DNA from: Candidatus Latescibacterota bacterium
GTDB taxonomy: Bacteria; Latescibacterota; UBA2968; UBA8231
Direction: 5' to 3'
Length of the DNA stretch: 64,000 nucleotides
NCBI GenBank assembly: GCA_965223905.1
Contig: CBDCXV010000009.1
Span: 672,001 to 736,000 of the forward strand
Both the position numbers and the translations under genes were made by a program. Every line of letters starts with the position of its first letter. Position 1 is the first letter of the stretch. Of this stretch, positions 3,634-64,000 are shown piece after piece. Under the pieces are notes generated by a model. The model was not told the DNA's origin. It searched no databases and worked only from the letters and a program-made list of their open reading frames with translations.

Positions 3634-4595
3634 GCCTGCCTCCGCAACAGCTCCAAGACCCTCTCCATATCCTCCGACAGCGGCGAGGAAAAGCCCGCGG
3701 TCTTTCCGGTGGAAGGGTGTTCGAAAACGAGCCTGCTCGCATGCAGGCCCTGGCGCCCGATCAGCTCGAGCGCCTGCCGCGCGAGGGAGCGGTGCTCCGC
3801 GGCGATTCCGCGCAGTCGGGAGCGTCCCCCGTAGACGGGATCGCCGAAAACGGGATGACCCGCGTGCTGCATGTGGACGCGAATCTGGTGGGTTCTGCCG
3901 GTTTCCAGCTCGACGCGGATCAGGCTCAGGAACGCGAACCGTTCACAGGTCCGGAAATGGGTGACTGCGCGGCGTCCCTTGTCGCGAACCGCCATCTTCA
4001 CCCGGTCGCGGGGGTTGCGGGCGATGGCGGCTTCGATCCGCCCGGCGCCCGGATCTCCCCAGACGACGGCGGTGTAGACACGGCTGAGGGTCCGCGCCTC
4101 GAGCTGGGCGGCGAGGTGGCGGTGGGCGCGGTCGTTCTTTGCGACGACCATCAGGCCGGTGGTGTCGCGGTCGAGACGGTGGACGATGCCGGGCCGCAGG
4201 GCCCCGTTGATGCCGGAAAGATCCTGGCAGCGGTGGAGGAGGGCGTTTACCAGCGTTCCCGTCCGGCATCCGGGAGCCGGGTGAACGGTCATCCCGGCGG
4301 CCTTGTCGACAACCAGAAGATCCTCGTCTTCGTACGGGACCGAGAGGGGGATCTCCTCTGGAAGAAGGTCGAGCCTGCCGGGGGCGGGGATCGTCATGTC
4401 GACGCGGTCTCCGGCCTTGACCCTGTAGCTGGCGCGCCGCGGTTCCCCCCCGACGCGAACGACTCCTTCGTCGATCAGCGTCTGAATACGGCTGCGCGAA
4501 AGGGAGCCGCAACGTTCGGCGAGGAAGCGGTCAAGACGCTCTCCTTCCTCCTCGTCGGTAATGACAACTCGAACCTGGGCGCCGGGGTGGGACAT
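3630..4595 (-). CDS. rluD: RluA/RluD family 23S rRNA pseudouridine synthase
   Basis: N-terminal S4 domain (RLDRFLA), GIVHRLDRDTTG catalytic motif, LETGRTHQIRVH. Confidence 0.92.
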   Translation of the reverse strand: MSHPGAQVRVVITDEEEGERLDRFLAERCGSLSRSRIQTLIDEGVVRVGGEPRRASYRVKAGDRVDMTIPAPGRLDLLPEEIPLSVPYEDEDLLVVDKAAGMTVHPAPGCRTGTLVNALLHRCQDLSGINGALRPGIVHRLDRDTTGLMVVAKNDRAHRHLAAQLEARTLSRVYTAVVWGDPGAGRIEAAIARNPRDRVKMAVRDKGRRAVTHFRTCERFAFLSLIRVELETGRTHQIRVHMQHAGHPVFGDPVYGGRSRLRGIAAEHRSLARQALELIGRQGLHASRLVFEHPSTGKTAGFSSPLSEDMERVLELLRRQA

Positions 4596-51920: not shown

Positions 51921-52057
51921 TGATTTCCGCTCCGGTTGTTCTTCAGGGTAGGTCGTATCTGGCGGGACGGCGCCGCCGAAGAGCCCCTCATCACCCTTCG
52001 AGCCGCGCCGCAGAAGACAAGCATCTATTTGTTAAAGAAAGAGTTAGCAGATCATTT

Positions 52058-52086
52058 ACCTTAGGTGCCGCGATCGCGGATGTCAA
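52058..52086 (-). promoter_or_regulatory. Sigma70-like promoter upstream of the ugd operon
   Basis: TTGACA-N17-TAAGGT on the minus strand, followed by an AT-rich leader. Confidence 0.55.
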
Positions 52087-52145
52087 ACCGCCGCGGGCAG
52101 TTTCCCTCACCTTCCGGAGGCCCCGGGGGCCGGGCTTGTTGCAGG

Positions 52146-53945
52146 TCAATCGTCGTCCTCGCGTTCCGACAGCAGGTCGCCGCGCTGCAGGCGCTCGGCG
52201 TTTTCCGTCGACCAGAGGATCCCCTTCATCAGCTTTTGCGCCGTGATGTAGCGGGTGGCGGCGAGCATGTGCATCCGCTTCTCCTCCCCGTCGCCGCTCA
52301 GGTCGAAGTGGCGGAAGGCGACTTCGAGGACCTGGAACATGTGCAGCTCGGCGTCCTCGCGCAGGAGGACGTGGGCCAGGGTCCGGCGCAGGCGGGTGAG
52401 GTCGTGCCCCTCCTCGAGATACTGGTTCACAAGCACCTCGGCCTCGAAAACCTTCTGGAAGTCGGCGAACTCCTGCAGCCGCTCGAGCATGGCTTCGGGG
52501 CCGTCGAAGGCTTCGGCCAGGCGCTGTCCGGGGCGCGGCAGGCGGGCGGCCGGCATGTTGAGCCAGCGCAGGTAGGTCAGGAAGACGGCGCCGTGGAAGA
52601 GACCGCGCAGCAGCTCCCTGCCTGGGGCGAGGTGGAAGGCGCGGTAGAGGCCGTGGGCATAGGAGTAGATGTTGGCGACGTCGTGCCAGTCCCCCTCGTT
52701 CTTGAGGTGGAAGCGGGCGACGCGGATGGCCCCGGCGTAGGCCATGGCGCGGCACAGGTCGCGCGGATCGACGCCGGCACGGAGGCGCGCTTCGATCTCG
52801 GCGAGGATCGGCTCGAAGTCGTCGCCGAGCATGACCTGGGCGAAGGCGGAGATGTCGAGCGGGGCTTCGTTCTCCCGGTTCTCCTTCCAGATGTCGTCGA
52901 GGCGGGTGAAGATCTCCTCGAGGACGGGGACGCTGTCCGACCAGCGCGAGGTCTCTTCGTGGCGCGTGCGCCCGACCAGGTCGACGACGATGGGACGCAG
53001 GATTTCGTGGGCCCCTTCCCATTCCACGTAGTCGAGGGCCTCGAACATCTTGTTGGCGAAGTCGAGGGCGTGGCCGTCCCCGGTGAAGTAGAAATCGGTG
53101 GCGGTGGTGAAGACCAGGTCGGCGAGCACCTCGGCCGGGTAGCCCCTGTCGTGCAGGGTGAGGAGGATGCGCTCGGCCGGCCCGCGGTCGCGCTGGTCGA
53201 TGTAGCGGCGGAACCAGCGGCGCATGGTGTCGAGATCGGGGTCCCGGCTGGCGGGCGGAAAGGGGGAACGCTGCCGCCGCGAGCTCCCCGAGGTGCGGCT
53301 GGCGATCTGGCTGAGGCCGTGGACGAGAAAGAGGTTCCGGTCCCCGGGGTCGATGTCCTCCCACAGGTTGGCCGCCAGGGTCAGGATGGTCACCCCGGAG
53401 GACCAGCCCTCGCTGGTTTTGTGAGTTCCGAAGTAGAGCCCCTGCTGGATGATCTCGCGCGGCGGAGCCCCGGCCTGGCGCAGGGCGGTCACCGCCTTGG
53501 CGATGAGGAAGGAGCTGCGGTCCTTGAGGCCCTGTTCCAGCCCCCTCTTGCCCCTTTCGATGAGGCGCCGCGCCGCGGCCTCGCGTTCGTCCGCGGCCAG
53601 GCCGACGTAGAGACAGCCGTCCCGGCGCTCCTCGACCGGGAAGGTCTTGAGGTCGTCCCCCGAGGTGAGGAAGCAGCCGCCGGTGTTCAGGTCGAACTCC
53701 CAGTGGTGCCAGTGGCAGATGAGAACGCCGTCGCGGATGCTGCCCTTGGACATCGGGTAGCCCATGTGGGGGCAGCGGTTGTCGACGGCGTGGAAGCCGT
53801 CCTCGTAGCGGAAGAGGGCGAGGTGGGTGCCGTTGACGCTGAAGGGGCGGCTTTCCCCTTCGGCGATGTCGGCGGCGGCGCACAACCGGTGGTACATCAG
53901 AGGGGCGGCAGGGGAAGAATCGCTCGGGCGGGTCGCCTGACTCAT
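52146..53945 (-). CDS. Rieske [2Fe-2S] domain fused to a large helical domain of unknown function
   Basis: NRCPHMGYP...ICHWHH Rieske ligands; ATG 53945 with GAGGAGG RBS; about 599 aa. Confidence 0.85.
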   Translation of the reverse strand: MSQATRPSDSSPAAPLMYHRLCAAADIAEGESRPFSVNGTHLALFRYEDGFHAVDNRCPHMGYPMSKGSIRDGVLICHWHHWEFDLNTGGCFLTSGDDLKTFPVEERRDGCLYVGLAADEREAAARRLIERGKRGLEQGLKDRSSFLIAKAVTALRQAGAPPREIIQQGLYFGTHKTSEGWSSGVTILTLAANLWEDIDPGDRNLFLVHGLSQIASRTSGSSRRQRSPFPPASRDPDLDTMRRWFRRYIDQRDRGPAERILLTLHDRGYPAEVLADLVFTTATDFYFTGDGHALDFANKMFEALDYVEWEGAHEILRPIVVDLVGRTRHEETSRWSDSVPVLEEIFTRLDDIWKENRENEAPLDISAFAQVMLGDDFEPILAEIEARLRAGVDPRDLCRAMAYAGAIRVARFHLKNEGDWHDVANIYSYAHGLYRAFHLAPGRELLRGLFHGAVFLTYLRWLNMPAARLPRPGQRLAEAFDGPEAMLERLQEFADFQKVFEAEVLVNQYLEEGHDLTRLRRTLAHVLLREDAELHMFQVLEVAFRHFDLSGDGEEKRMHMLAATRYITAQKLMKGILWSTENAERLQRGDLLSEREDDD

Positions 53946-54233
53946 GGTCAGCCTCCTCGGCGTGAGGGTGGGCCGGGTTGGGGGGGAATACGGGTTCGGT
54001 TGCTCCCCGGCGGGAACAGTACGCAAGTAACGTTTTGCGCTCCCGTTTGCAAGGGGCCGGGCTCCCGGGAAACCCTCCGCGGTTCGGATGGAGGGGGTTG
54101 GCCGGGAGCTGCCCTGACTTCCGTCTTGATCCATCCCGGGTGCGGCCCTTATTTGCCCCACTTACCGGCTTCCCAATAGAACACCCCGGAACCGCCGGCG
54201 TTCCCGGACCTCCTTCGACAGGCAGTATCCCCC

Positions 54234-55238
54234 ATGAACGCTTCCTCCAAGGACCTGATCATCGGCGTTGCCGCATGCGCCCTCATCGTTTTCATCTTCG
54301 CCAGCATCGAGCTGATCGAGCTCTTCTTCGACTTCACGCGCCAGTACGAGGAATGGAACCTCGATGAAGCGATTGCCGCGGTGCCCGCCCTGGCGCTGGT
54401 GAGCGCCTGGTTCGCCGGGCGGCGTTGGCGCGAGATCCGCCGTCTGAACGGGGAGCTGGAAGAGACGGTGGCGCAGCTCGAGGAGGCGATCGCGCAGCGC
54501 CGCGCCATGGAAGACCAACTCGGGGAAGCGTACAAGATGGCGGCCATGGGCGCGCTTACAGGCGGGCTCGCCCACGAGTTCAACAACGTGCTGCAGCCGA
54601 TCGTCACCCTCGCCCAGTTGAGCCTCGACCGCGACGGGACGGAAGAGCAGAAGACCCGGATCCGACATATCCTCAAGGCGGCCGAGCACGGCTGCGAGAT
54701 CGTCAAGGGGACCCTGGCCTTCCCCGCCGGCGGAACCCAGGAAACGCACGACATGGTCCCGGCCGAGGATGTCGCAGGCTTCGTCGAGCAGGCAAGGGGC
54801 CGTCTCGGCAAGGTCGAGATCGACGCCCGGATCGCCGCCGACTCCGGAGCCATCCGCGTCAACAGGGCGGAGTTCAACCAGGTGATGACCAACCTGGTCA
54901 GGAACGCCGCCGAAGCGATGGACCACAGGGGCAAGGTCGAGATCGGCCTCGGGTCCCGCACCCTCGATGCAGAGGCGGCGCGCGCGAAGGGCCTGGCAGC
55001 CGGCAGGTACGTCCGCGTGACCGTGGCCGACAACGGCCCGGGCATGGTCTCCGAGGTGAGGGACCAGATCTTCGATCCCTTCTTCACCACCAAGGAGGCG
55101 GGAGAAGGCACGGGACTGGGTCTCGCCATCGTCTACAGCTTGGTGCAGGGATGGAACGGCAGGATCTCCGTGTACTCGTCCCCCGGGAACGGGGCGGCGT
55201 TCGAAATACTGATCCCGAGGCTGGAACGGGGGGCCTGA
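54234..55238 (+). CDS. Membrane-bound sensor histidine kinase
   Basis: 2 TM; H-box LAHEFNN, N-box NLVRNA, DNGPG, FDPFFTTK, GTGLGL. Confidence 0.93.
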   Translation: MNASSKDLIIGVAACALIVFIFASIELIELFFDFTRQYEEWNLDEAIAAVPALALVSAWFAGRRWREIRRLNGELEETVAQLEEAIAQRRAMEDQLGEAYKMAAMGALTGGLAHEFNNVLQPIVTLAQLSLDRDGTEEQKTRIRHILKAAEHGCEIVKGTLAFPAGGTQETHDMVPAEDVAGFVEQARGRLGKVEIDARIAADSGAIRVNRAEFNQVMTNLVRNAAEAMDHRGKVEIGLGSRTLDAEAARAKGLAAGRYVRVTVADNGPGMVSEVRDQIFDPFFTTKEAGEGTGLGLAIVYSLVQGWNGRISVYSSPGNGAAFEILIPRLERGA

Positions 55239-55241
55239 ACG

Positions 55242-55643
55242 ATGGCGGCCATACTGCTCGCCGACGACGACGCGGGAGTGCTTTTCGCGCTGGGGATGCT
55301 GTTGCGGGAGGCAGGCCACGAGGTGCTCGAGGCCGACCGCTGCCAAGCGGTCTTGGAGACCGTTACAAGCAGAAGGCCGGATCTCGCCGTGACCGACGTC
55401 AACATGCGGGACATGAGCGGGGTCGAGCTGATCGAGCAGCTGCGCAAGGCCCGTCCCGGAGTCCCGATAATCGCCATGACAGGCGGCGGCATGCACCAGA
55501 CACCGGAGCTGGCCGCGACTCTCGCCGGGAATGCCGGGGCCGACAGGGTGCTGCAGAAGCCGTTCGGCAACGACGCCCTGCTGGCCGAGGTCGCGGCGCT
55601 GCTTCCCGATTCCGGAGTTTCCTCCCGGGGCCGGAACTCGTGA
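55242..55643 (+). CDS. Single-domain response regulator (receiver only)
   Basis: ILLADDD, DLAVTDVNM, IAMTG, QKPF. Confidence 0.92.
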   Translation: MAAILLADDDAGVLFALGMLLREAGHEVLEADRCQAVLETVTSRRPDLAVTDVNMRDMSGVELIEQLRKARPGVPIIAMTGGGMHQTPELAATLAGNAGADRVLQKPFGNDALLAEVAALLPDSGVSSRGRNS

Positions 55644-55798
55644 ACCGTATGCACGTCGGGTACGCGGCTGTCTACCTGCCGCCTGCAAGGAGCCGAATCA
55701 CCTGACCTCGTTCAGCATGCAGGCTGACGATTAATGCATGAAACACTTACACAATGCCACACCGGAAACCATCCGGACAGAAGGGGAGAAAGCCTGAG

Positions 55799-56821
55799 AT
55801 GAAGAAAAATGACCTGATCGACATTGCGCAGGCCCTGGTCCCGCCCGGCAGGGGAATCCTGGCGGCCGACGAAAGCTCCGGCACGATCGCGAAGCGGTTT
55901 GCGAGCATCGGAACCGAGTCGACGGAGGAGAACCGGCGCTCGTACCGGGAGCTCCTGTTCACCACGCCCGGCATGGAGGAGTTCATCAGCGGGGTCATAC
56001 TGTACGACGAGACCATCAGGCAGGCGGCCGGGGACGGCACGCCGCTGCCGCAGGTGCTTTCGGCAAAGGGAGTGATTCCCGGGATCAAGGCGGACACGGG
56101 GTTGAAGGACCTGCCAGGTTTCCCGGGCGAGCAGACAACCGAGGGGCTCGACGGCCTTCAGGACCGGCTGGCCGAGTACCGCGAGCTGGGAGCGCGGTTC
56201 GCCAAGTGGCGGGCGGTGACCGCCGTCGGCGACGGGCTCCCCACCTCCGGCTGCATCGAGGCCAACGCCCAGGGGCTGGCGCGCTACGCGGCGATATCGC
56301 AGGCGGCCGGGCTGGTGCCGATCGTCGAGCCCGAGGTGCTGATGGACGGCGCCCACGACCTGCGGGCCTGCGAGGAGGCGACCGCGGCCACCCTGGCCTG
56401 CGTCTACGAGCAACTGTACAGCCAGCGCGTCGAGCTCGAGGGCACCCTGCTGAAACCGAACATGGTGCTTTCGGGCAAGGACTGCCCGGAGCAGGCTTCG
56501 GTCGAGGAGGTCGCCGAGGCGACGCTCCGCTGCTTCCGCCGCCACGTGCCCGCGGCGGTCCCGGGCATCGTGTTTCTCTCGGGGGGCCAGGGCCCGGAGC
56601 AGGCGACAGCCCACCTCAACGCCATGAACGCTCTCGGCGGGGCGCCCTGGCAGCTGAGCTTCTCCTACGGCCGCGCCCTGCAGGAGACGGCGTTGAAGGC
56701 CTGGAAGGGAAATGCCGCCAACATCGAAGCGGCGAAGCGGGCCTTCTACCTGCGCGCCAGGCTCAACGGTGCCGCCCGCAGCGGGGAGTACACCCTGGCG
56801 ATGGAGAGGGAAGCCGCCTGA
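55799..56821 (+). CDS. Fructose-bisphosphate aldolase class I (eukaryote-type)
   Basis: GILAADES, FAKWRAV, VPIVEPE, GTLLKPNMV Schiff-base Lys, FLSGGQ, SFSYGRALQ; ATG 55799. Confidence 0.95.
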   Translation: MKKNDLIDIAQALVPPGRGILAADESSGTIAKRFASIGTESTEENRRSYRELLFTTPGMEEFISGVILYDETIRQAAGDGTPLPQVLSAKGVIPGIKADTGLKDLPGFPGEQTTEGLDGLQDRLAEYRELGARFAKWRAVTAVGDGLPTSGCIEANAQGLARYAAISQAAGLVPIVEPEVLMDGAHDLRACEEATAATLACVYEQLYSQRVELEGTLLKPNMVLSGKDCPEQASVEEVAEATLRCFRRHVPAAVPGIVFLSGGQGPEQATAHLNAMNALGGAPWQLSFSYGRALQETALKAWKGNAANIEAAKRAFYLRARLNGAARSGEYTLAMEREAA

Positions 56822-56990
56822 CTCACGGCGGCCGGGGGCGCGACCTTCCCGGAGAACCAGCTACGGGAAGGCAGCAGGGAACCGAAAGCTCCCGGAGGCT
56901 GTAGTATCAGCAGACTGTAGAGGCGCGGCCGCACAGAAGCGGTCGCGCCTTTTTCCTGCTCACACGGCGGCGGGGGACGAGGGGAGCACC

Positions 56991-59666
56991 TCAGGCATGG
57001 GTCGGGTCGCGCTTCTCCGGATCGATGTCGAGCTCGGAGATCGCGCGGCGCACCTCCTCTTGGCCGAGCGTTCCCTGGCGGTGCAGGTCGGCGATCGCGG
57101 CATAGGCGATCGTCTCGGCGTCGACCTCGAAGAAACGGCGCAGCGACGCGCGCGACTCGCTGCGGCCGAAGCCGTCGGTGCCCAGGGCGACCGGCGGCCG
57201 CGGGAACCAGCGCGCGATCGAGTTCGGCAGCGCCTTGATGTAGTCGGAGGCGATGACGAAGCTGCCGCTTTCCCCCTCGAGACATTCGCCGATCCAGGAT
57301 TTCGGGGAGGCGCCTTCCCGCTGTCGCAGGCCGACCCGTTCGCAGGCGCCGCCGTCCTCGTGCAGCTGGCGGAAGCTGGTGATCGACCAGACGCTGGCGC
57401 CGACGTCGAAGCGCTCGGCGAGGATCTCCCGCGCCCGCAGCGCCTCGTTGAGGATGCTGCCGCTGGCGAACAGGTGGGCACGCCTTTCGAGTCCTTCCGG
57501 CGCTTCCCGCAACCGGTACATCCCCCTGAGGATCCCCTCCTCCGCCCCCGGCGGCATGGCCGGCATCGGGTAGTCCTCGTTCTGGACGGTCAGGTAGTAG
57601 ACGAGGTCCTCGCCGCGGCCGTACATGCGCTCGATCCCTTCCCGCAGGATGACGGCGAGTTCGTAGCCGAAGGCGGGGTCGTAGGCGACCACGTGGGGAT
57701 AGCTGTAGGAGAGCAGGTGGCTGTGCCCGTCCTGGTGCTGCAGCCCTTCCCCGTTGAGGGTCGTGCGCCCCGAGGTGGCGCCGATGAGGAAGCCGCGCGC
57801 CCGCTGGTCGCCGGCGGCGAAGACGAGATCGCCGACGCGCTGGAACCCGAAGATCGAGTAGAAGACGAAGAACGGCAGGGTGTGAATACCGTGGCTGGAA
57901 TAGGCGGTCCCCGCGGCGATGAAGGAGGACAGGGCTCCGGCCTCGGTGATCCCCTCTTCGATCAGCTGCCCGTCCCGGGCCTCGCGGTAATAGGTGAGGG
58001 TCTCGCTGTCGACCGGCTCGTACAGCTGTCCGATATGCGAGTAGATCCCGTACTGCCGGAACAGCGCCTCCATGCCGAAGGTGCGCGCCTCGTCGGCGAC
58101 GATCGGCACGATCAGCGGCCCGAGCTGCTTGTGCCGCATCAGCTTCGCCAGGATGCGCACGAACATCATGGTCGACGACGCGCGGCGCTCTCCGGTGCCG
58201 GGAAGGAATTCGTCGAACAGGTCGCGGTGCTGCGTCTCCTCCGGCGGCGGCCCTGCCGGGCGGCTCGGCACGAACCCCCCGAGGGCCCGGCGGCGGTCGA
58301 CGAGGTACTGGCTCTCCGGGGTCTCGGCTGCGGGCCGGTAGTAGGACAGCTGCTCGACCTCCTCGTCGGAGAGGGGAATGGCGAAGCGGGTGCGGATTTC
58401 CCGCAGGGCCCCGGTGTCGAGCTTCTTCTGCTGGTGCGCCCCCATGCGCCCTTCCCCGGCTTCCCCCATTCCGTACCCCTTGATCGTCTTGGCGAGCACC
58501 ACCGACGGGGCGCCGCGGAACTCCAGGGCGGCGCGGTAGGCGGCGTACACCTTCTCGGGGTCGTGGCCGCCGCGGCGGATGGTGCGGATGTGCTCGTCGG
58601 TCAGGTGCCGGGAGAGCTTCATCAGGCTTTCGTCGACTCCGAAGAAGTGGTTGCGCTGGTAGTTGCCGTCGGAGACGCTGTACTTCTGGTACTGGCCGTC
58701 GACGAGCTCCCCCATGCGCCGCGCCAGCAGCCCCCGCTCGTCCATGGCCAGCAGCGGGTCCCAGTCGCTCCCCCAGATCACCTTGATGACGTTCCAGCCG
58801 GCGCCGCAGAAGACCGTCTCCAGCTCCTGGATGATCTTGCCGTTGCCGCGCACCGGGCCGTCGAGCCGCTGCAGGTTGCAGTTGACGACGAAGACGAGGT
58901 TGTCGAGCTGCTCGCGCGCCGCCAGGGAGATGGCCCCGAGGGATTCCGGCTCGTCCATCTCGCCGTCGCCGATGAAGGCCCAGACCTTGGCGTCGGAGGG
59001 CTGCTTGAGGCCGCGGTCCTCGAGATAGCGGTTGAAGCGGGCCTGGTAGATCGCCATGATCGGGCACAGCCCCATCGACGCCGTGGGGAACTGCCAGAAA
59101 TCGGGCATCAGCCTTGGGTGCGGGTAGGAGGACAGTCCCCCTTCCGGCCTGAGCTCGTGGCGGTAGTTGTCGAGCTGCTCTTCGCTCAGCCGCCCCTCGA
59201 GGAAGGCGCGCGCGTAGATCCCCGGGGCCGTATGCGCCTGCCAGAAGACGTGATCCCCCTCGAAACCGCGGTCGCGGCCGCGCATGAAGTGGTTGAGCGC
59301 CACCTCGTACAGGGCCGCAACCGAGGCGTAGGTCGCGATATGGCCGCCGATCGTCGGGTCGGCGCGGTTGGCGCGCACCACCATAATCATGGCGTTCCAG
59401 CGGATGATGTTGCGGATGCGCCGCTCGAGGTCGTGGCTGCCCGGATAGGGGGGCTGCGCGCCGGGGGGAATGGTGTTGACGTAGGGCGTGCTGGCGGCGA
59501 ACGGCAGCGACACCCCGCGCTCACGGGCGTGGTCGCGCAGGCGCTCCAGCAGCTCGCGGACGCGCTCCGGCCCCGAGTGCTCGAGCACGTAGTCGAGGGA
59601 CTCGAGCCACTCCCCGGTCTCGAGGGACTCGAGCAGCTCCTCGTCGGTCCGCGGCATGCCGGTCAT
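56991..59666 (-). CDS. aceE: Pyruvate dehydrogenase E1, homodimeric type
   Basis: ETGEWLESL, PYVNTI, GGHIATYAS, GDGEMDEPE..NCNLQRLDG, DEARTFG, GEGLQHQDG; true start ATG 59666 with GAGGAG RBS (891 aa). Confidence 0.95.
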   Translation of the reverse strand: MTGMPRTDEELLESLETGEWLESLDYVLEHSGPERVRELLERLRDHARERGVSLPFAASTPYVNTIPPGAQPPYPGSHDLERRIRNIIRWNAMIMVVRANRADPTIGGHIATYASVAALYEVALNHFMRGRDRGFEGDHVFWQAHTAPGIYARAFLEGRLSEEQLDNYRHELRPEGGLSSYPHPRLMPDFWQFPTASMGLCPIMAIYQARFNRYLEDRGLKQPSDAKVWAFIGDGEMDEPESLGAISLAAREQLDNLVFVVNCNLQRLDGPVRGNGKIIQELETVFCGAGWNVIKVIWGSDWDPLLAMDERGLLARRMGELVDGQYQKYSVSDGNYQRNHFFGVDESLMKLSRHLTDEHIRTIRRGGHDPEKVYAAYRAALEFRGAPSVVLAKTIKGYGMGEAGEGRMGAHQQKKLDTGALREIRTRFAIPLSDEEVEQLSYYRPAAETPESQYLVDRRRALGGFVPSRPAGPPPEETQHRDLFDEFLPGTGERRASSTMMFVRILAKLMRHKQLGPLIVPIVADEARTFGMEALFRQYGIYSHIGQLYEPVDSETLTYYREARDGQLIEEGITEAGALSSFIAAGTAYSSHGIHTLPFFVFYSIFGFQRVGDLVFAAGDQRARGFLIGATSGRTTLNGEGLQHQDGHSHLLSYSYPHVVAYDPAFGYELAVILREGIERMYGRGEDLVYYLTVQNEDYPMPAMPPGAEEGILRGMYRLREAPEGLERRAHLFASGSILNEALRAREILAERFDVGASVWSITSFRQLHEDGGACERVGLRQREGASPKSWIGECLEGESGSFVIASDYIKALPNSIARWFPRPPVALGTDGFGRSESRASLRRFFEVDAETIAYAAIADLHRQGTLGQEEVRRAISELDIDPEKRDPTHA

Positions 59667-59685
59667 GGCTTGTGCTCCTCGGCGC

Positions 59686-59822
59686 AAGAAATTGCGCTTG
59701 ATAAGGGCGTCGAGGCGCCCGGCTCGCAAGGCGCGCGACCGACGTGGGTTGGGGTACCCACCGAGGGAGCGCAACGTAGCGAGTCGGGATGCATCGGCGG
59801 CCTTATGGGGAAGAAATTGCGC
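59686..59822 (+). repeat. Long imperfect-hairpin element (MITE/REP-like or ncRNA) flanked by 12-bp direct repeats aagaaattgcgc
   Basis: Arms 59701-59727 and 59779-59806; direct repeats at 59686-59697 and 59811-59822. Confidence 0.65.
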
Positions 59823-59833
59823 CGGGGGAGCAC

Positions 59834-60787
59834 TTAGTTCACGACGTTCTCGGGCTCGCCGGCGAGGTACGCCTTGACGTTGTCGACCAGGGTGTTGAGG
59901 AGCCGCGAGCGCGCCGACCGCGTCGCCCAGGCGATGTGCGGCGTCACGAAGCAGTTTCTGGCGCTGAACAGGGGATTGTCGCGCGGCGGCGGCTCCACCG
60001 GGACGACGTCGAGCCCGGCCCCGGCGATGCGGCCGGCGTTGAGAGCGTCGGCGAGCGCCTGGTCGTCGACGAGGGGGCCGCGGCTGGTGTTGATGAGCAG
60101 GGCCGATTCCTTCATCAGGTCGATGCGCCCGGCGTCGACGAGGTTCTCCGTTTCCGGGGTCAGGGGGCAGTGCAGGCTGATGACGTCGCTGCGCCGGAAC
60201 AGGTCGTCGACCTCGGTGAACTCGACACCGGGAAAATCCGCAGGGTCGAGGAAGGCGTCGTGGGCGAGCAGCTCCATGCCGAGGGCGCGGCCGATGTTCC
60301 CGGTGCGCTGGCCGATGCGGCCGTAGCCGACGATCCCCAGGGTCAACCCGTCGAGCTCGCGCAGCGGGAAGTCCCAGTAACAGAAGTCGCGGCATTCGCT
60401 CCAGCGGCCCTCCTGGACGGTGCCGGCGTGGTGGGCGACCCGCTGGGTCAGATTGAGGACGTGAGCGAAGACCATCTGCGCCACCGAGGCGGTGCCGTAG
60501 GTCGGGATGTTGGTCACCGGGATGTCCCGCTCCCGCGTCGCCTCGATGTCGACGACGTTGAACCCGGTCGCCTGCACCCCGATGTATTTCAGGTCGGGAA
60601 GCCGGCCGATCACCTCGCGCGAGAGCTCCACCTTGTTGGTCATGACGACCTCCGCCCCCCGGGCCCGTTCCACCGCCTGCTCGTTGAGGGAATGGTCGTA
60701 GACCGTGAGCTCGCCGAGGGCCTCCAGTCCCTCCCAGCTGAGATCGCCGGGATTGAGGGTGTATCCGTCGAGTACGACAATCTTCAT
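59834..60787 (-). CDS. D-2-hydroxyacid dehydrogenase (glycerate dehydrogenase/hydroxypyruvate reductase-like)
   Basis: MKIVVLDGYTLNPGD, GIVGYGRIG, SLHCPLT, INTSRG, AGLDV..EP, TPHIAW. Confidence 0.92.
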   Translation of the reverse strand: MKIVVLDGYTLNPGDLSWEGLEALGELTVYDHSLNEQAVERARGAEVVMTNKVELSREVIGRLPDLKYIGVQATGFNVVDIEATRERDIPVTNIPTYGTASVAQMVFAHVLNLTQRVAHHAGTVQEGRWSECRDFCYWDFPLRELDGLTLGIVGYGRIGQRTGNIGRALGMELLAHDAFLDPADFPGVEFTEVDDLFRRSDVISLHCPLTPETENLVDAGRIDLMKESALLINTSRGPLVDDQALADALNAGRIAGAGLDVVPVEPPPRDNPLFSARNCFVTPHIAWATRSARSRLLNTLVDNVKAYLAGEPENVVN

Positions 60788-61346
60788 CAATCGCGTCTCC
60801 TGTCGCCCCGTGAGGGGATAGGCTTTCCGTTCGCTGCGGGGCCGCGGATAACGGGCGGCGTGGTCAGGACAGGATAAACGGATTTAGCGGGGGAGCGGGC
60901 AAGGGAAAGCGTGCGCCTGCCTTTGTCATTTGTGCTGATGGCGGTGTCACGTCGAGAGCACGAGGAACCGGCGTGGATTCTTCACGCGGCATTTCCCGGA
61001 CGGGAGGTGCGACCTTTGGAGCGCCGACAAGCTCTTCCGATAGTTCAGCCGCTGAACTCAGTTGGGCCGGGAGCCCACGGTTTTGGAGTCTGGGACTATC
61101 AGGCGACTGGGCAAACCAGCAGTTTAAGGTGGAGCTTGGCGATTCGTATCGGAGGCCGTCCTTGGGAACCGATTTCAGCGGTACGCCCTCGGCAAACGGT
61201 CCGGTTCGGACCCCTCAGACCGGGTCGCATGGACGATCGACAGCCAACCATCACCGACGCTTTGGGAAAAGCGCTCGCCGGAAATTGTAAAATTCGGATT
61301 AGCCTTCATTGATCGGAGGGGAGCGGTAGCCATACAACAGACCCGA

Positions 61347-64000
61347 ATGCATCTCACGGACAAATGGCTCTTCAGGTCCCGGGACTGGAACGACGATTGC
61401 CGGCGGCTGGCGGCGCAGGTCTCCCGGCTGGGGATCTGTCTCCTGGGCGCCGGGATGGTTGGATGGGCAGAGCCGGCGGCGGCGCAGGATGGCGGGGCCG
61501 TCGAGCTGTGCCGGAACGGCGTCGTCGTGCCTGAGCCGCAGGACTATCCAGGCCTCGTGGCTGATTGTGCAGCGCTGCTGGGCGCGTTGAACCAGTGGGA
61601 AGATTCCGGTTTGAACTGGAGCGCGGAAAGACCGATCCGTCGATGGGAGGGTGTCTTTTTGTCGCAAGACCCCCTCCCTAGTTATTTGCGTTCCACCTCA
61701 AGCGAATTGCGGGTCACCTTGCTGCGCCTGAATTCCAACTACTTGGAGGTGCTCCCCCCTGAAATAGGCCAACTGGCAAAGCTTGAGTATCTGGATTTTT
61801 CCCGGAATGAACTCAAGACCATTCCACCTGAAATAGGTCAACTTATCCAACTGAAGAGCTTGGACCTGCGTTCCAACAACTTGGAGATGCTCCCTCCTGA
61901 AATAGGTCAACTCATCCAACTGAAGGAATTGAAACTGCATCTCAACAACTTGGAGGAGCTCCCCCCTGAAATAGGTCAACTGTCAAAGCTTGAGTATCTG
62001 ACACTCTGGGCGAATGAACTCAAGACGATCCCACCTGAAATAGGTCAACTCACGCAACTGGAGACCCTGGTCCTGTCTGCCAACTACTTGGAGGAGCTCC
62101 CCCCTGAAATAGGCCAACTGGCAAAGCTTGAGTATCTGTCACTCTCGGGGAATGAATTCGAGACGATCCCTTCCGAGTTAAGCCAACTTGGAAACTTGAG
62201 GACACTCTATATCGGCTTTTGTCGACTGAGGGGAGCGATCTTGCCTGATTTGGGCAATCTCGACCAGTTGGAGTGGCTTTTCTTGGCGGGCAACTTTTTG
62301 TCGGGGGCGATTCCCCCTGAGTTGGGTCAATTGGCCTTGTTAGAGATCTTGGACCTCTCCGAAAACGATCTGACGGGAGAGATTCCACATGACTTGGGTC
62401 GCATGGCTGCCTTGGAAAGGTTGGACCTCTCCCGCAATGCCTTGAGTGGACCGATTCCGCCCGAGTTGGGTCAATTGGCCACGTTAGAGATCTTGAATCT
62501 CTCCGAAAACCATCTGACGGGGCAGATTCCGCCTGACTTGGGTCGCATGGCTGACTTGAGGGGTTTGGAACTCTCCGGCAATGACTTGAGTGGACCGATT
62601 CCGCTCGAGTTGGGTCAATTGGGGTGGCTCCGGATTCTGGACCTTTCCCACAACCGATTGAGCGGGCCCTTTCCGCCTGAGTTGGCTCAATTGGCTCGGC
62701 TCGACAGTCTGGACCTTTCCCACAACCGGTTGAGCGGGTCCCTTGGCCCCGGACTGGTCAAGCTGTTTCGTCAGAATCCGGTTGTTGTGGACTTCACCGG
62801 CAACGGAATGATCTGCGTGGCGGAGTCGCCATTTGCCTTTGGCGACGTACCCCCCTGTGACCCCCCGCCCCCGCCGGAGGGAAGGATATACTGGACGGAC
62901 CTGGGCTCGGGGGACATCCGGCGGGCCGACCTGGATGGGGGCTCCAATATCCAGATCGTGATCGATGGAGGCGGGAGCCCGGAAGGGATCGCCCTGGACC
63001 CCGCCGCAGGCAAGATGTATTGGACGAAATGGAACGGAGCCGTCGGCAAGATCCAACGGAGTGATTTGGACGGCTCGAATCCCGAAACCATCGTCGTTAC
63101 GGGGCGATGGCATCCAAGGGGGATTGCCCTGGATCTCGATGCAGACAAGGTCTACTACACGGTCTCCAGTCGCTACTTGGCCCGTGAAGCCGGAGTGGTG
63201 GTCGATGTGTACTTGTCCGGCGGGGTCAGGCGCGCGAACCTGGACGGCTCCTCGCCGGAGGACCTCGTGTGGGAGGAATGGCTTGAAGGCCTGGAGGTGG
63301 ACATCGCCCTGAACGTCAGCGCAGGAACCATGTTCTGGACGGACGGGGAATCCATCAGGCGAGCCAACCTGGACGGCACCGGCAACAGCCCATGCCTGCG
63401 CATAAACAGCGTTGACGGCATTAACACCGTTGACATCGTCCTGGACGTACCCGGAGGCAGGATCTACTGGTCGGACAGCCAGGGCATCCACCGGGCGGAC
63501 CTGGACTGCTCGAAAAGAGAGACTCTCGTCACCTTTGACGGGCAACCAGTGCCGAGGAGTCTCGCTCTGGACCTGAAGGGCGGCAGGATGTACTGGACGG
63601 ACGCCCAAGTGATCTACCGGGCGGACTTGGACGGCTCCCATGCCGCCCCCTTGTTCACCGGGGCAGAATATCCCGGAGGAATCGCCTTCGACCCGGTCGG
63701 CGACAGGATGTACTGGACGGAACCGGGAACGGAGAGAATCCGGCGGGTCGATCGGGATGGAACCCATGCCGAGACCCTGATCGCAGAGGTAAGAAGGGCT
63801 CCTGTCAGCCTCGCCCTGGACCTGGCCGGAAACAGGATGTACTGGACGGACCGGGGAACGAACAGGATCCACCGGGCGGATCTCGATGGCGATAATATCG
63901 AGGATCTCGCCGGTGGATTGACAGCCCCTGGGGGGATTGCCCTGGACGCGCCCGGGGGAAAGATGTACTGGACGAACCGGGACACGAGTGTGATTCACCG
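61347..64000 (+). CDS. Probably exported LRR + YWTD (LDL-receptor class B) repeat protein; truncated by the window end
   Basis: Not in the ORF track; translated manually, open for 884 codons. Signal-like segment (LGICLLGAGMVGWAEPAAAQ), Cys-containing cap, 15 LRRs, PPCDPPPPP linker, at least 9 YWTD-type repeats. Start uncertain. Confidence 0.9.
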   Translation, partial: MHLTDKWLFRSRDWNDDCRRLAAQVSRLGICLLGAGMVGWAEPAAAQDGGAVELCRNGVVVPEPQDYPGLVADCAALLGALNQWEDSGLNWSAERPIRRWEGVFLSQDPLPSYLRSTSSELRVTLLRLNSNYLEVLPPEIGQLAKLEYLDFSRNELKTIPPEIGQLIQLKSLDLRSNNLEMLPPEIGQLIQLKELKLHLNNLEELPPEIGQLSKLEYLTLWANELKTIPPEIGQLTQLETLVLSANYLEELPPEIGQLAKLEYLSLSGNEFETIPSELSQLGNLRTLYIGFCRLRGAILPDLGNLDQLEWLFLAGNFLSGAIPPELGQLALLEILDLSENDLTGEIPHDLGRMAALERLDLSRNALSGPIPPELGQLATLEILNLSENHLTGQIPPDLGRMADLRGLELSGNDLSGPIPLELGQLGWLRILDLSHNRLSGPFPPELAQLARLDSLDLSHNRLSGSLGPGLVKLFRQNPVVVDFTGNGMICVAESPFAFGDVPPCDPPPPPEGRIYWTDLGSGDIRRADLDGGSNIQIVIDGGGSPEGIALDPAAGKMYWTKWNGAVGKIQRSDLDGSNPETIVVTGRWHPRGIALDLDADKVYYTVSSRYLAREAGVVVDVYLSGGVRRANLDGSSPEDLVWEEWLEGLEVDIALNVSAGTMFWTDGESIRRANLDGTGNSPCLRINSVDGINTVDIVLDVPGGRIYWSDSQGIHRADLDCSKRETLVTFDGQPVPRSLALDLKGGRMYWTDAQVIYRADLDGSHAAPLFTGAEYPGGIAFDPVGDRMYWTEPGTERIRRVDRDGTHAETLIAEVRRAPVSLALDLAGNRMYWTDRGTNRIHRADLDGDNIEDLAGGLTAPGGIALDAPGGKMYWTNRDTSVIH
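61710..62766 (+). repeat. Coding LRR tandem array: seven 69-bp units then eight 72-bp units
   Basis: cctgaaatagg(t/c)caact recurs at 61758, 61827, 61896, 61965, 62034 and 62103; later units include a duplicated 144-bp pair. Confidence 0.9.

Follow-up and report, generated by a model that had tools for sequence, protein, structure and literature searches.

The window analyzed is a stretch of 64,000 nucleotides from a Latescibacterota genome (G000:C9:672001-736000), and ends within a gene which joins two classes of leucine-rich repeats (LRRs) to YWTD repeats of the LDL-receptor type and to a C-terminal sorting domain of the type IX secretion system (T9SS). The source assembly (G000) measures 7.92 Mb in 11 contigs, with a GC content of 0.63-0.65, a completeness of 93.6% and a contamination of 5.1%. 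The open reading frame (ORF) starts at ATG 61347 on the + strand and stays open to the end of the window, the in-window part (61347..63998) coding for 884 amino acids (aa). The full frame ends beyond the window, at G000:C9:736862 (L009:2348-5863), and its product (P0002) is 1171 aa long. The gene and its parts, with the basis of each assignment, are as follows.

61347..64000, on to G000:C9:736862, + strand: gene for the 1171-aa protein (open frame); blades 10-12 and the T9SS tail lie beyond the window
61347..61484, + strand: signal-like N-terminus, aa 1-46 (translation, judged by eye)
61485..61712, + strand: Cys-bearing N-terminal LRR cap, aa 47-122 (translation motifs, model)
61713..62195, + strand: seven 23-aa LRRs, aa 123-283 (in-register repeats, PDB matches)
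62196..62771, + strand: eight 24-aa LRRs of the plant-specific class, aa 284-475 (in-register repeats, PDB and Foldseek matches)
62772..62885 (L009 3773-3886), + strand: Cys/Pro linker, aa 476-513 (translation)
62886..63707, + strand: predicted YWTD propeller 1, six blades starting at aa 514, 557, 602, 662, 706 and 748 (Pfam, motif, model, Foldseek)
63708..64000, + strand: predicted YWTD propeller 2, blades starting at aa 788, 831 and 873 in the window, and at aa 917, 975 and 1028 outside it, to L009:5557
G000:C9:736608-736850 (L009:5609-5851), + strand: T9SS type A C-terminal sorting domain, aa 1088-1168 (TIGR04183, FlgD_ig)

The signal-like segment is made up by a basic stretch, the 14-residue hydrophobic LGICLLGAGMVGWA and AAAQ, and is kept in orthologues from about C18 of the consensus; a helix is modelled at aa 16-34 with low confidence. 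The cap features C55 and the motifs DCAALL (73-78), LNW (89-91), WEGV (100-103) and RVT (122-124), and its model contains a helix (68-83) and a strand (103-107). Neither the cap nor the linker matches any Pfam family even at E ≤ 10, and the likeness of the cap to plant LRRNT_2 is for this reason an impression. The linker contains C490, C504 and the proline run PPCDPPPPP. Across 22 aligned orthologues the first invariant columns are N486, C490, P502 and C504, and invariant columns are found from N486 through the linker, both propellers and the tail.

The seven 23-aa units conform in register to LxxLxLxxNxLxxLPPEIGQLxx (LPPEIGQL type), the eight 24-aa units to LxxLxLSxNxLSGxIPPELGQLxx, and LRR_8 is matched in Pfam with an E value of 3.7e-45. 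The top PDB sequence matches of aa 114-294 are Leptospira LIC11098, LIC12759 and LIC10831, SHOC-2 and LRRD1 (2e-67 to 5e-54), those of aa 235-470 are plant LRR receptor kinases (FLS2, 1.2e-169; GSO1, MIK2, PEPR1, BRI1). Judged by this search, two distinct LRR classes are present. Plant-specific LRRs are described as 23-25-aa units of the form LxxLxLxxNxL(t/s)GxIPxxLGxLxx (PMC2946307; this and the other papers are cited for the parts consulted). The consensus fits the units at aa 308-475, the unit at aa 284 being degenerate; in our own reading, the 23-aa units come closest to the class called 'typical' in the same source. Leptospira LIC11098, LIC12759 and LIC10831 and SHOC-2 share 23-aa LPxxIGxL units with the protein, a likeness which lies in the repeat class, not in orthology. 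Plant LRR receptor kinase ectodomains (FLS2, GSO1, MIK2, ERL, BRI1) share the 24-aa consensus and are the best PDB matches by both sequence and fold (MIK2, ERL1/2 and RGFR1 in Foldseek; identity 25-35%). They differ in that the protein has no kinase or membrane anchor, LRRNT_2 is not detected in it, and only eight units of this class are found, placed after seven units of another. Xanthomonas LRR type III effectors were rejected as relatives, the NCBIfam LRR models scoring far below their cut-offs (XopAE 226.8/600, XopAC 182.6/450, XopL 103.6/500; LIC_11051, 112/1000) and matching the LRR class alone. In DNA, units 10 and 12 of the array are 89% and units 11 and 13 82% identical, a pattern which points to a recently duplicated two-unit super-repeat.

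The second half of the protein is recognized by Ldl_recept_b (PF00058) with 144.1 bits (cut-off 21; E 1.6e-42), a single repeat scoring 39 bits alone in the genome search. Twelve YWTD blades lie within aa 514-1070, those in the window starting at nt 62886, 63015, 63150, 63330, 63462, 63588, 63708, 63837 and 63963. The top PDB sequence matches of aa 685-933 are LRP2, LRP4 and LRP6, E values against LRP2 being as low as 1.6e-108. An AlphaFold2 model built on 22 orthologues has a mean pLDDT of 78.5 (above 90 in the LRR arc, mostly 80-90 in the propellers); in it, aa 513-1061 are all-beta and the tail is folded as a beta-sandwich at aa 1096-1169. In Foldseek, the top solved matches are the two-propeller units of LRP5/6 (E 1.6e-27, ~620 aligned columns, identity 20-23%). 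The twelve blades would hence form two adjacent six-bladed propellers, as in LRP5/6, LRP2 and LRP4 (PDB 3S2K, 3S94, 4DG6, 4A0P); we infer the 6+6 split from the alignment to LRP6 and the number of blades, rather than from the model coordinates. Compared with members of the LRP/LDLR family, to which it is 20-23% identical, the protein has no EGF domain after the propellers, and no class A, transmembrane or cytoplasmic parts. EGF, Ldl_recept_a (class A) and kinase families are all missing from a Pfam scan at E ≤ 0.01, as is a membrane anchor. It follows that modules are shared with eukaryotic receptors, while architectures are not. By its domain content the protein falls outside the LDL-receptor family, with the propeller module alone in common. 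Strong Pfam and NCBIfam matches are limited to LRR, Ldl_recept_b and FlgD_ig/Por_Secre_tail.

The original prediction, drawn from the letters of the window, had described a signal-like segment, the cap motifs, seven 23-aa and eight 24-aa LRRs, a Cys/Pro linker and at least nine YWTD repeats. All are present in the translation, the LRRs in register and the YWTD positions correct within 3 nt, and three further blades (aa 917, 975 and 1028) reside beyond the window. The LRR plus Ldl_recept_b architecture is recovered by Pfam. The rest of the gene, where a sorting domain had been thought worth looking for, indeed contains one (TIGR04183), and the protein is modular as had been proposed, consisting of binding domains only. 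The term receptor finds no support in the signalling sense, as transmembrane and cytoplasmic parts are both lacking.

The fusion of LRRs to propellers is genuine. The junction was monitored in Logan contigs of four runs (X1, X3, X6, X9) from four studies, X1 being possibly the source sample. Eight zero-mismatch contigs tile the gene in X1, and one of them (L009 3716-4700) spans the last LRR unit, the linker and the six blades of propeller 1. The junction is also bridged in X3 (3716-4074), X6 (3716-4143) and X9 (3716-4038), hence in 4/4 runs. Skips seen inside the YWTD region upon contig comparison were not taken as variants, their sides measuring only 20-42 letters, within repeats. Full-length orthologues with the same Pfam set reside in other assemblies (identity 87, 77, 73, 66 and 48%), and by our own count 29 of the 119 non-self database proteins among the matches listed carry both an LRR family and PF00058. 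Mis-assembly, which had been named as what might undo the original prediction, is excluded by the bridging contigs and the orthologues found elsewhere.

The sorting domain lies at the extreme C-terminus. TIGR04183 (T9SS type A, Por_Secre_tail) matches aa 1088-1168 of 1171 with 34.8 bits (cut-off 23; 40.3 bits in the genome search), and FlgD_ig matches the same C-terminal domain with 36 bits (cut-off 27). The genome holds 123 TIGR04183 matches, and parts of the secretion machinery, as SprA (607.6 bits summed, cut-off 200) and PorU (617 bits, cut-off 420). A link between Latescibacterota and T9SS was not found in the literature searched, which does not cover subscription journals. At the DNA level dozens of other genes in four related genomes (G102, G103, G104 and G107) match the tail (L009:5582-5863) with 71-80% identity. 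Because tail DNA matches many genes and gene bodies do not, the tail behaves as a highly conserved, shared cassette.

The LRR block departs from its surroundings in base composition, as noted in the original prediction. In 400-nt windows over 61600-62399 the GC content is 0.487-0.520, against 0.54-0.73, and mostly ≥ 0.62, in the rest of 52000-64000, where the lowest values (0.54, 0.58) correspond to the edges of the block and the upstream spacer. By part, GC is 0.493 in the 23-aa units, 0.56 in the 24-aa units, 0.62 in the propellers and 0.72 in the tail. GC at second codon positions is 0.29 in the 23-aa units and about 0.5 elsewhere. GC at third codon positions (GC3) was compared with the values expected from the codon usage of 15 Pfam-supported genes of the same genome (20,113 codons), as follows.

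23-aa LRR units: observed 0.590, expected 0.835, z -8.5
24-aa LRR units: observed 0.682, expected 0.844, z -6.3
propeller 1: observed 0.792, expected 0.840, z -2.2
propeller 2: observed 0.753, expected 0.839, z -4.1
tail: observed 0.901, expected 0.850, z +1.5

TTG makes up 27/49 leucine codons in the 24-aa units, compared to 162/1887 in the reference set. AT-richness of the block is therefore partly a matter of amino acid content, because of the low GC at second positions, and partly of atypical synonymous codons, because GC3 deviates. Within the genome, the 23-aa class is almost confined to this gene, as monitored with a hidden Markov model (HMM) of the unit. The 23-aa block is found in near orthologues and is absent from those 48% identical, which show the 24-aa spacing only. 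Arrays resembling it are present in 81/168 genomes of the phylum, for the most part in the families in which PF00058 is found too. A donor was not found among the 168 genomes, the best non-orthologous match being 57% identical. The data fit, without proving it, a block inserted as a foreign cassette or evolving separately from the rest of the gene.

The number of LRR motifs ranges from 3 to 14 in orthologues which keep the N-terminal part. Some variants are mosaics: P0125 and P0002 are 97-100% identical in all other segments and 89% in the 24-aa block; P0123 and P0002 are 95-100% identical except in propeller 1 (88%). Near-identical strain variants differ solely within three LRR units, mostly at positions of the concave face. 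Substitutions in P0003 hit 21/90 concave x positions, 8/188 variable-segment positions and 2/75 core positions, and in P0125 11/90, 7/188 and 2/75, respectively. The sequences thus compared suggest that the array changes fast, both in number of units and on the concave face. Assembly errors in the repeats may contribute to this variation.

The protein is not isolated in its genome. PF00058 has at least 150 matches (150 of 260 first-look candidates were scored), and none is found in any of 14 control genomes. An HMM of the blade detects 22 ORFs, 20 with two or more blades, so that the paralogues whose count the original prediction had left to be made are about 20. Pfam confirms PF00058 in 19/19 paralogues scanned; many carry fn3, cadherin or dockerin domains as well, dockerin being present in 13 of the 19. 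LRR and YWTD repeats occur together in 4/20 YWTD ORFs, in both orders, the reverse one (YWTD, LRR, tail) being found once (C10:305318-307681). Domain shuffling, by which the gene had been proposed to be assembled, is made plausible by these ORFs, by distant orthologues devoid of the 23-aa block and by the atypical codons of the LRRs. As far as domain content tells, this Latescibacterota genome encodes a large and shuffled family of surface proteins resembling those of eukaryotes, to which the protein belongs. Within the phylum PF00058 is found in 78/168 genomes, mainly in three families (40/75 in family f1, 14/22 in f3, 21/31 in f4, 2/39 in others).

Taken together, the data make it probable that the gene encodes a T9SS-exported surface protein with a binding function, an adhesin or a ligand trap, free of catalytic domains. 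The domain anatomy and the presence of T9SS parts in the genome are direct observations; export, location and ligand are read from domain content. The general T9SS route is known from Bacteroidota systems. By analogy, the protein would reach the periplasm by its Sec-type signal and be passed by the C-terminal type A domain to the T9SS (SprA translocon), and the PorU sortase would remove the tail, leaving the protein tethered at the cell surface or released. Binding would take place at the concave face of the 15-unit LRR arc and at the faces of the two LRP5/6-like six-bladed propellers; two kinds of binding surface would thus be offered outside the cell, whence the proposed role as adhesin or ligand trap. 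The best solved structural matches (LRP5/6 propellers, plant LRR ectodomains) are all ligand-binding modules.

Several observations weigh against this interpretation. The signal peptide is judged by eye alone. A PorV-like ORF lies directly after PorU and scores 91 bits, under the cut-off of 250, and models of GldL and GldM find no match in the genome; the latter result is uninformative, because the same models are silent in the control genomes too. Weak structural constraint would by itself make the x positions change faster. The gene also looks dispensable, since it is split by an insertion sequence in a genome of the same genus (G103, chromosome OZ242214.1) and is not found in another (G104) by a DNA search at E ≤ 1e-30, in which the tail alone is matched. 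In OZ242214.1 the orthologue is cut inside the 24-aa block by an insertion sequence of 1863 bp encoding a DDE_Tnp_1_4 transposase of 510 aa. Two copies of the element, 99.7% identical (L029:2214-4076 and L030:5102-6964), border the two gene halves, which point in opposite directions and lie 2.27 Mb from each other. Beside each copy there is the same stretch of 187 bp. The split halves look like the product of an inversion between the copies.

As to what a surface protein of this kind may bind, a ligand of a eukaryotic host of the sponge type is tentatively regarded as the most likely target, though less firmly than the binding function itself. In sponge-associated Poribacteria, LDL class B repeat proteins are described as surface-located, and eukaryote-like proteins (ELPs) may carry TIGR04183 tails (Kamke 2014; PMC3909097); the occurrence of such repeats in Poribacteria, which the original prediction had brought up, is therefore in print. 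Metagenome-assembled genomes (MAGs) of sponge Latescibacterota are listed with LRR, NHL and FN3 proteins, and neither LDL repeats nor T9SS are mentioned in the parts consulted (PMC12993501). Single ELPs, including an NHL propeller protein, are reported to have changed the phagocytosis of bacteria by sponges (PMC13747020). A host ligand is plausible because the domain set matches that of sponge symbionts and because single ELPs had such an effect (PMC3909097, PMC12993501, PMC13747020). The YWTD repeats mentioned in PMC4772301 concern genes of the sponge host.

Export by the same route with ligands other than those of a host is a less likely possibility, and ranks first among the alternatives. 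The cell would then live attached to particles or in biofilms, and the protein would recognize matrix, other cells, or glycoproteins or polysaccharides of detrital or algal origin, acting beside the dockerin paralogues in a surface capture apparatus. Dockerin is found in 13/19 paralogues, and one cohesin match in the genome exceeds its cut-off, but dockerin, carbohydrate-binding and enzyme domains are all missing in the protein according to Pfam. The spread of PF00058 over 78/168 genomes, in several families of the phylum, shows that the domain is not restricted to one narrow lineage. Clusters of LRR plus Por_Secre_tail proteins in Fidelibacterota and Bacteroidota are indicated by Protein Atlas, with scores below 0.9 which make them leads only. 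Ligands of solved LRR and YWTD modules, including those matched here, are proteins or peptides, which speaks against this alternative. Tandem class B repeats are reported in free-living cyanobacteria, Moritella and Paludibacter (PMC3909097); on the other side, LRR, fn3, cadherin and YWTD make up the set described for sponge symbionts (PMC3909097, PMC12993501).

That the propellers are enzymes of the SGL/Vgb-lyase/NHL clan, lactonases or lyases targeted by the LRR arc, is very improbable. Speaking for such enzymes are matches of 43.7 bits to PF08450 SGL (cut-off 26.3), of 44.1 bits to PF24684 Vgb_lyase and of 22.9 bits to DUF5050, on aa 754-1008. However, over the same residues Ldl_recept_b scores far higher (144 bits), Vgb_lyase (44 vs. 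a cut-off of 50) and DUF5050 stay below their cut-offs, and no single stretch passes alone for SGL. LRP2/4/6 rather than enzymes come first in both sequence and fold searches, and NCBIfam enzyme models, whose cut-offs are 400-600 bits, reach ~17 bits.

The idea that the gene is a chimera of assembly or a pseudogene in decay is weaker still, and largely refuted: the gene is highly repetitive, its pieces in Logan contigs measure 158-985 nt, contamination of the MAG is 5.1% and the G103 orthologue is disrupted, but the frame is open over 1171 codons, contigs from X1, X3, X6 and X9 cross the junction, both LRR and PF00058 are found in the 29/119 listed matches, full-length orthologues elsewhere included, and a related chromosome shows synteny in the flanks (94-98% identity in DNA).

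Within the interpretation of a T9SS-exported binding protein, a bolder proposal is doubtful and ranks well behind the non-host alternative. The LRR array would have been acquired by horizontal transfer and would serve as a recognition surface which diversifies fast, set on a conserved stalk of two LRP5/6-like propellers and displayed by T9SS; a strain-variable repertoire of such mimics of host receptors would capture ligands of the host or hide the cell from phagocytes of the sponge. It is hinted at by the atypical LRR codons (z -8.5 and -6.3), the restriction of the 23-aa block to near orthologues, the unit count of 3-14 and the mostly concave variants in three LRR units.

Bacterial proteins with LRRs, with YWTD repeats and with T9SS tails are already known, and the architecture recurs in dozens of database entries; no new class of system is in question. 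The closest parallels are ELPs of Poribacteria, in which tandem PF00058 repeats are predicted to be extracellular, the genomes also encode LRR, fn3 and cadherin proteins, and some proteins end in TIGR04183 tails (PMC3909097). They differ in that Por secretion genes were not found there, according to the parts of PMC3909097 consulted, whereas SprA and PorU are present here, in Latescibacterota, and in that a fusion of LRR and YWTD repeats is not described in the same parts. No printed description of such a bacterial fusion was found in a search which left outside subscription journals and the supplementary tables of PMC3909097 and PMC12993501. T9SS type A LRR cargo of the FCB group has the same layout of an N-terminal signal (putative in the present protein), binding domain and C-terminal TIGR04183/Por_Secre_tail; the members of the LRR-Por_Secre_tail clusters are, in contrast, 173-566 aa long (one is 1154 aa) and not listed with PF00058.

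The protein belongs with secreted eukaryote-like repeat adhesins or T9SS cargo, and is a useful test case, unsurprising to the specialist. If the interpretation holds, it is a concrete candidate with which the display of eukaryote-like binding modules via T9SS in Latescibacterota can be tested, for which the sequence is complete, the predicted export signal clear, the two binding modules separable and natural variants at hand. The published phagocytosis assay for ELPs (PMC13747020) would be directly applicable to it.

Side observations concern the paralogues. In 12 of the 19 YWTD paralogues (L010, L011, L012, L013, L015, L016, L017, L018, L020, L021, L022 and L028; e.g. C1:691264-695184) a domain resembling FlgD_ig or the T9SS tail, with the motif NYPNPFN, is located at aa ~100-230, soon past the signal peptide. 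It is preceded by a weak CarboxypepD_reg-like match in at least five, and followed by dockerin and then propellers in 11. At the C-terminus they have a YWTD blade or some other domain instead of a tail; the layout is common to dozens of database proteins. The database match P0047, found in a MAG of Gemmatimonadaceae, represents the dockerin type. The cohesin match (PF00963, 33 bits) resides at G000:C11:1258759-1259076 on the - strand, inside an open frame of 879 aa, a possible partner of the dockerin-bearing YWTD proteins. At G000:C10:305318-308833 (-), two neighbouring ORFs share a frame, with one in-frame stop and 48 nt between them; one, of 367 aa, comes first (signal peptide and YWTD), and is followed by one of 787 aa (YWTD, LRR and C-terminal T9SS tail). 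Jointly they would be the reverse-order paralogue, interrupted in either a pseudogene or a sequencing error.

Giant members are also found. Two ORFs of 4128 and 4073 aa (G000:C2:125216-137602 and C2:179708-191929) feature 18 YWTD blades together with cadherin, fn3 and LRR domains, and one of the two contains a leishmanolysin-like peptidase domain. In the set at C9:823036-832251 / C10:21616-32223, an ORF of 3071 aa ends with a protein-arginine deiminase domain (266 bits), and one of 3535 aa carries glucose/sorbosone dehydrogenase and metallophosphatase domains.

Around the gene, a spacer of 555 bp (60791-61346; GC 0.58-0.62) separates it from a divergent 2-hydroxyacid dehydrogenase gene. A sigma-70-like promoter was not found in the spacer by a simple scan; the promoter/terminator scan gave no promoter-like site and 6 terminator-like ones (3.5 expected), of which none convinces. 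The gene occurs in 8 studies, and no RNA run containing it is found among the 22 sequencing runs listed. The upstream neighbours are pyruvate dehydrogenase E1 and the 2-hydroxyacid dehydrogenase, those downstream FtsX/MacB genes, and the flanks are syntenic with the related Latescibacterota chromosome OZ242214.1 (7.05 Mb). Immediately downstream a convergent ORF of 688 aa (L009:5907-7973, - strand), with no Pfam match, is followed by two FtsX/MacB-type permease genes and a LolA-like gene.

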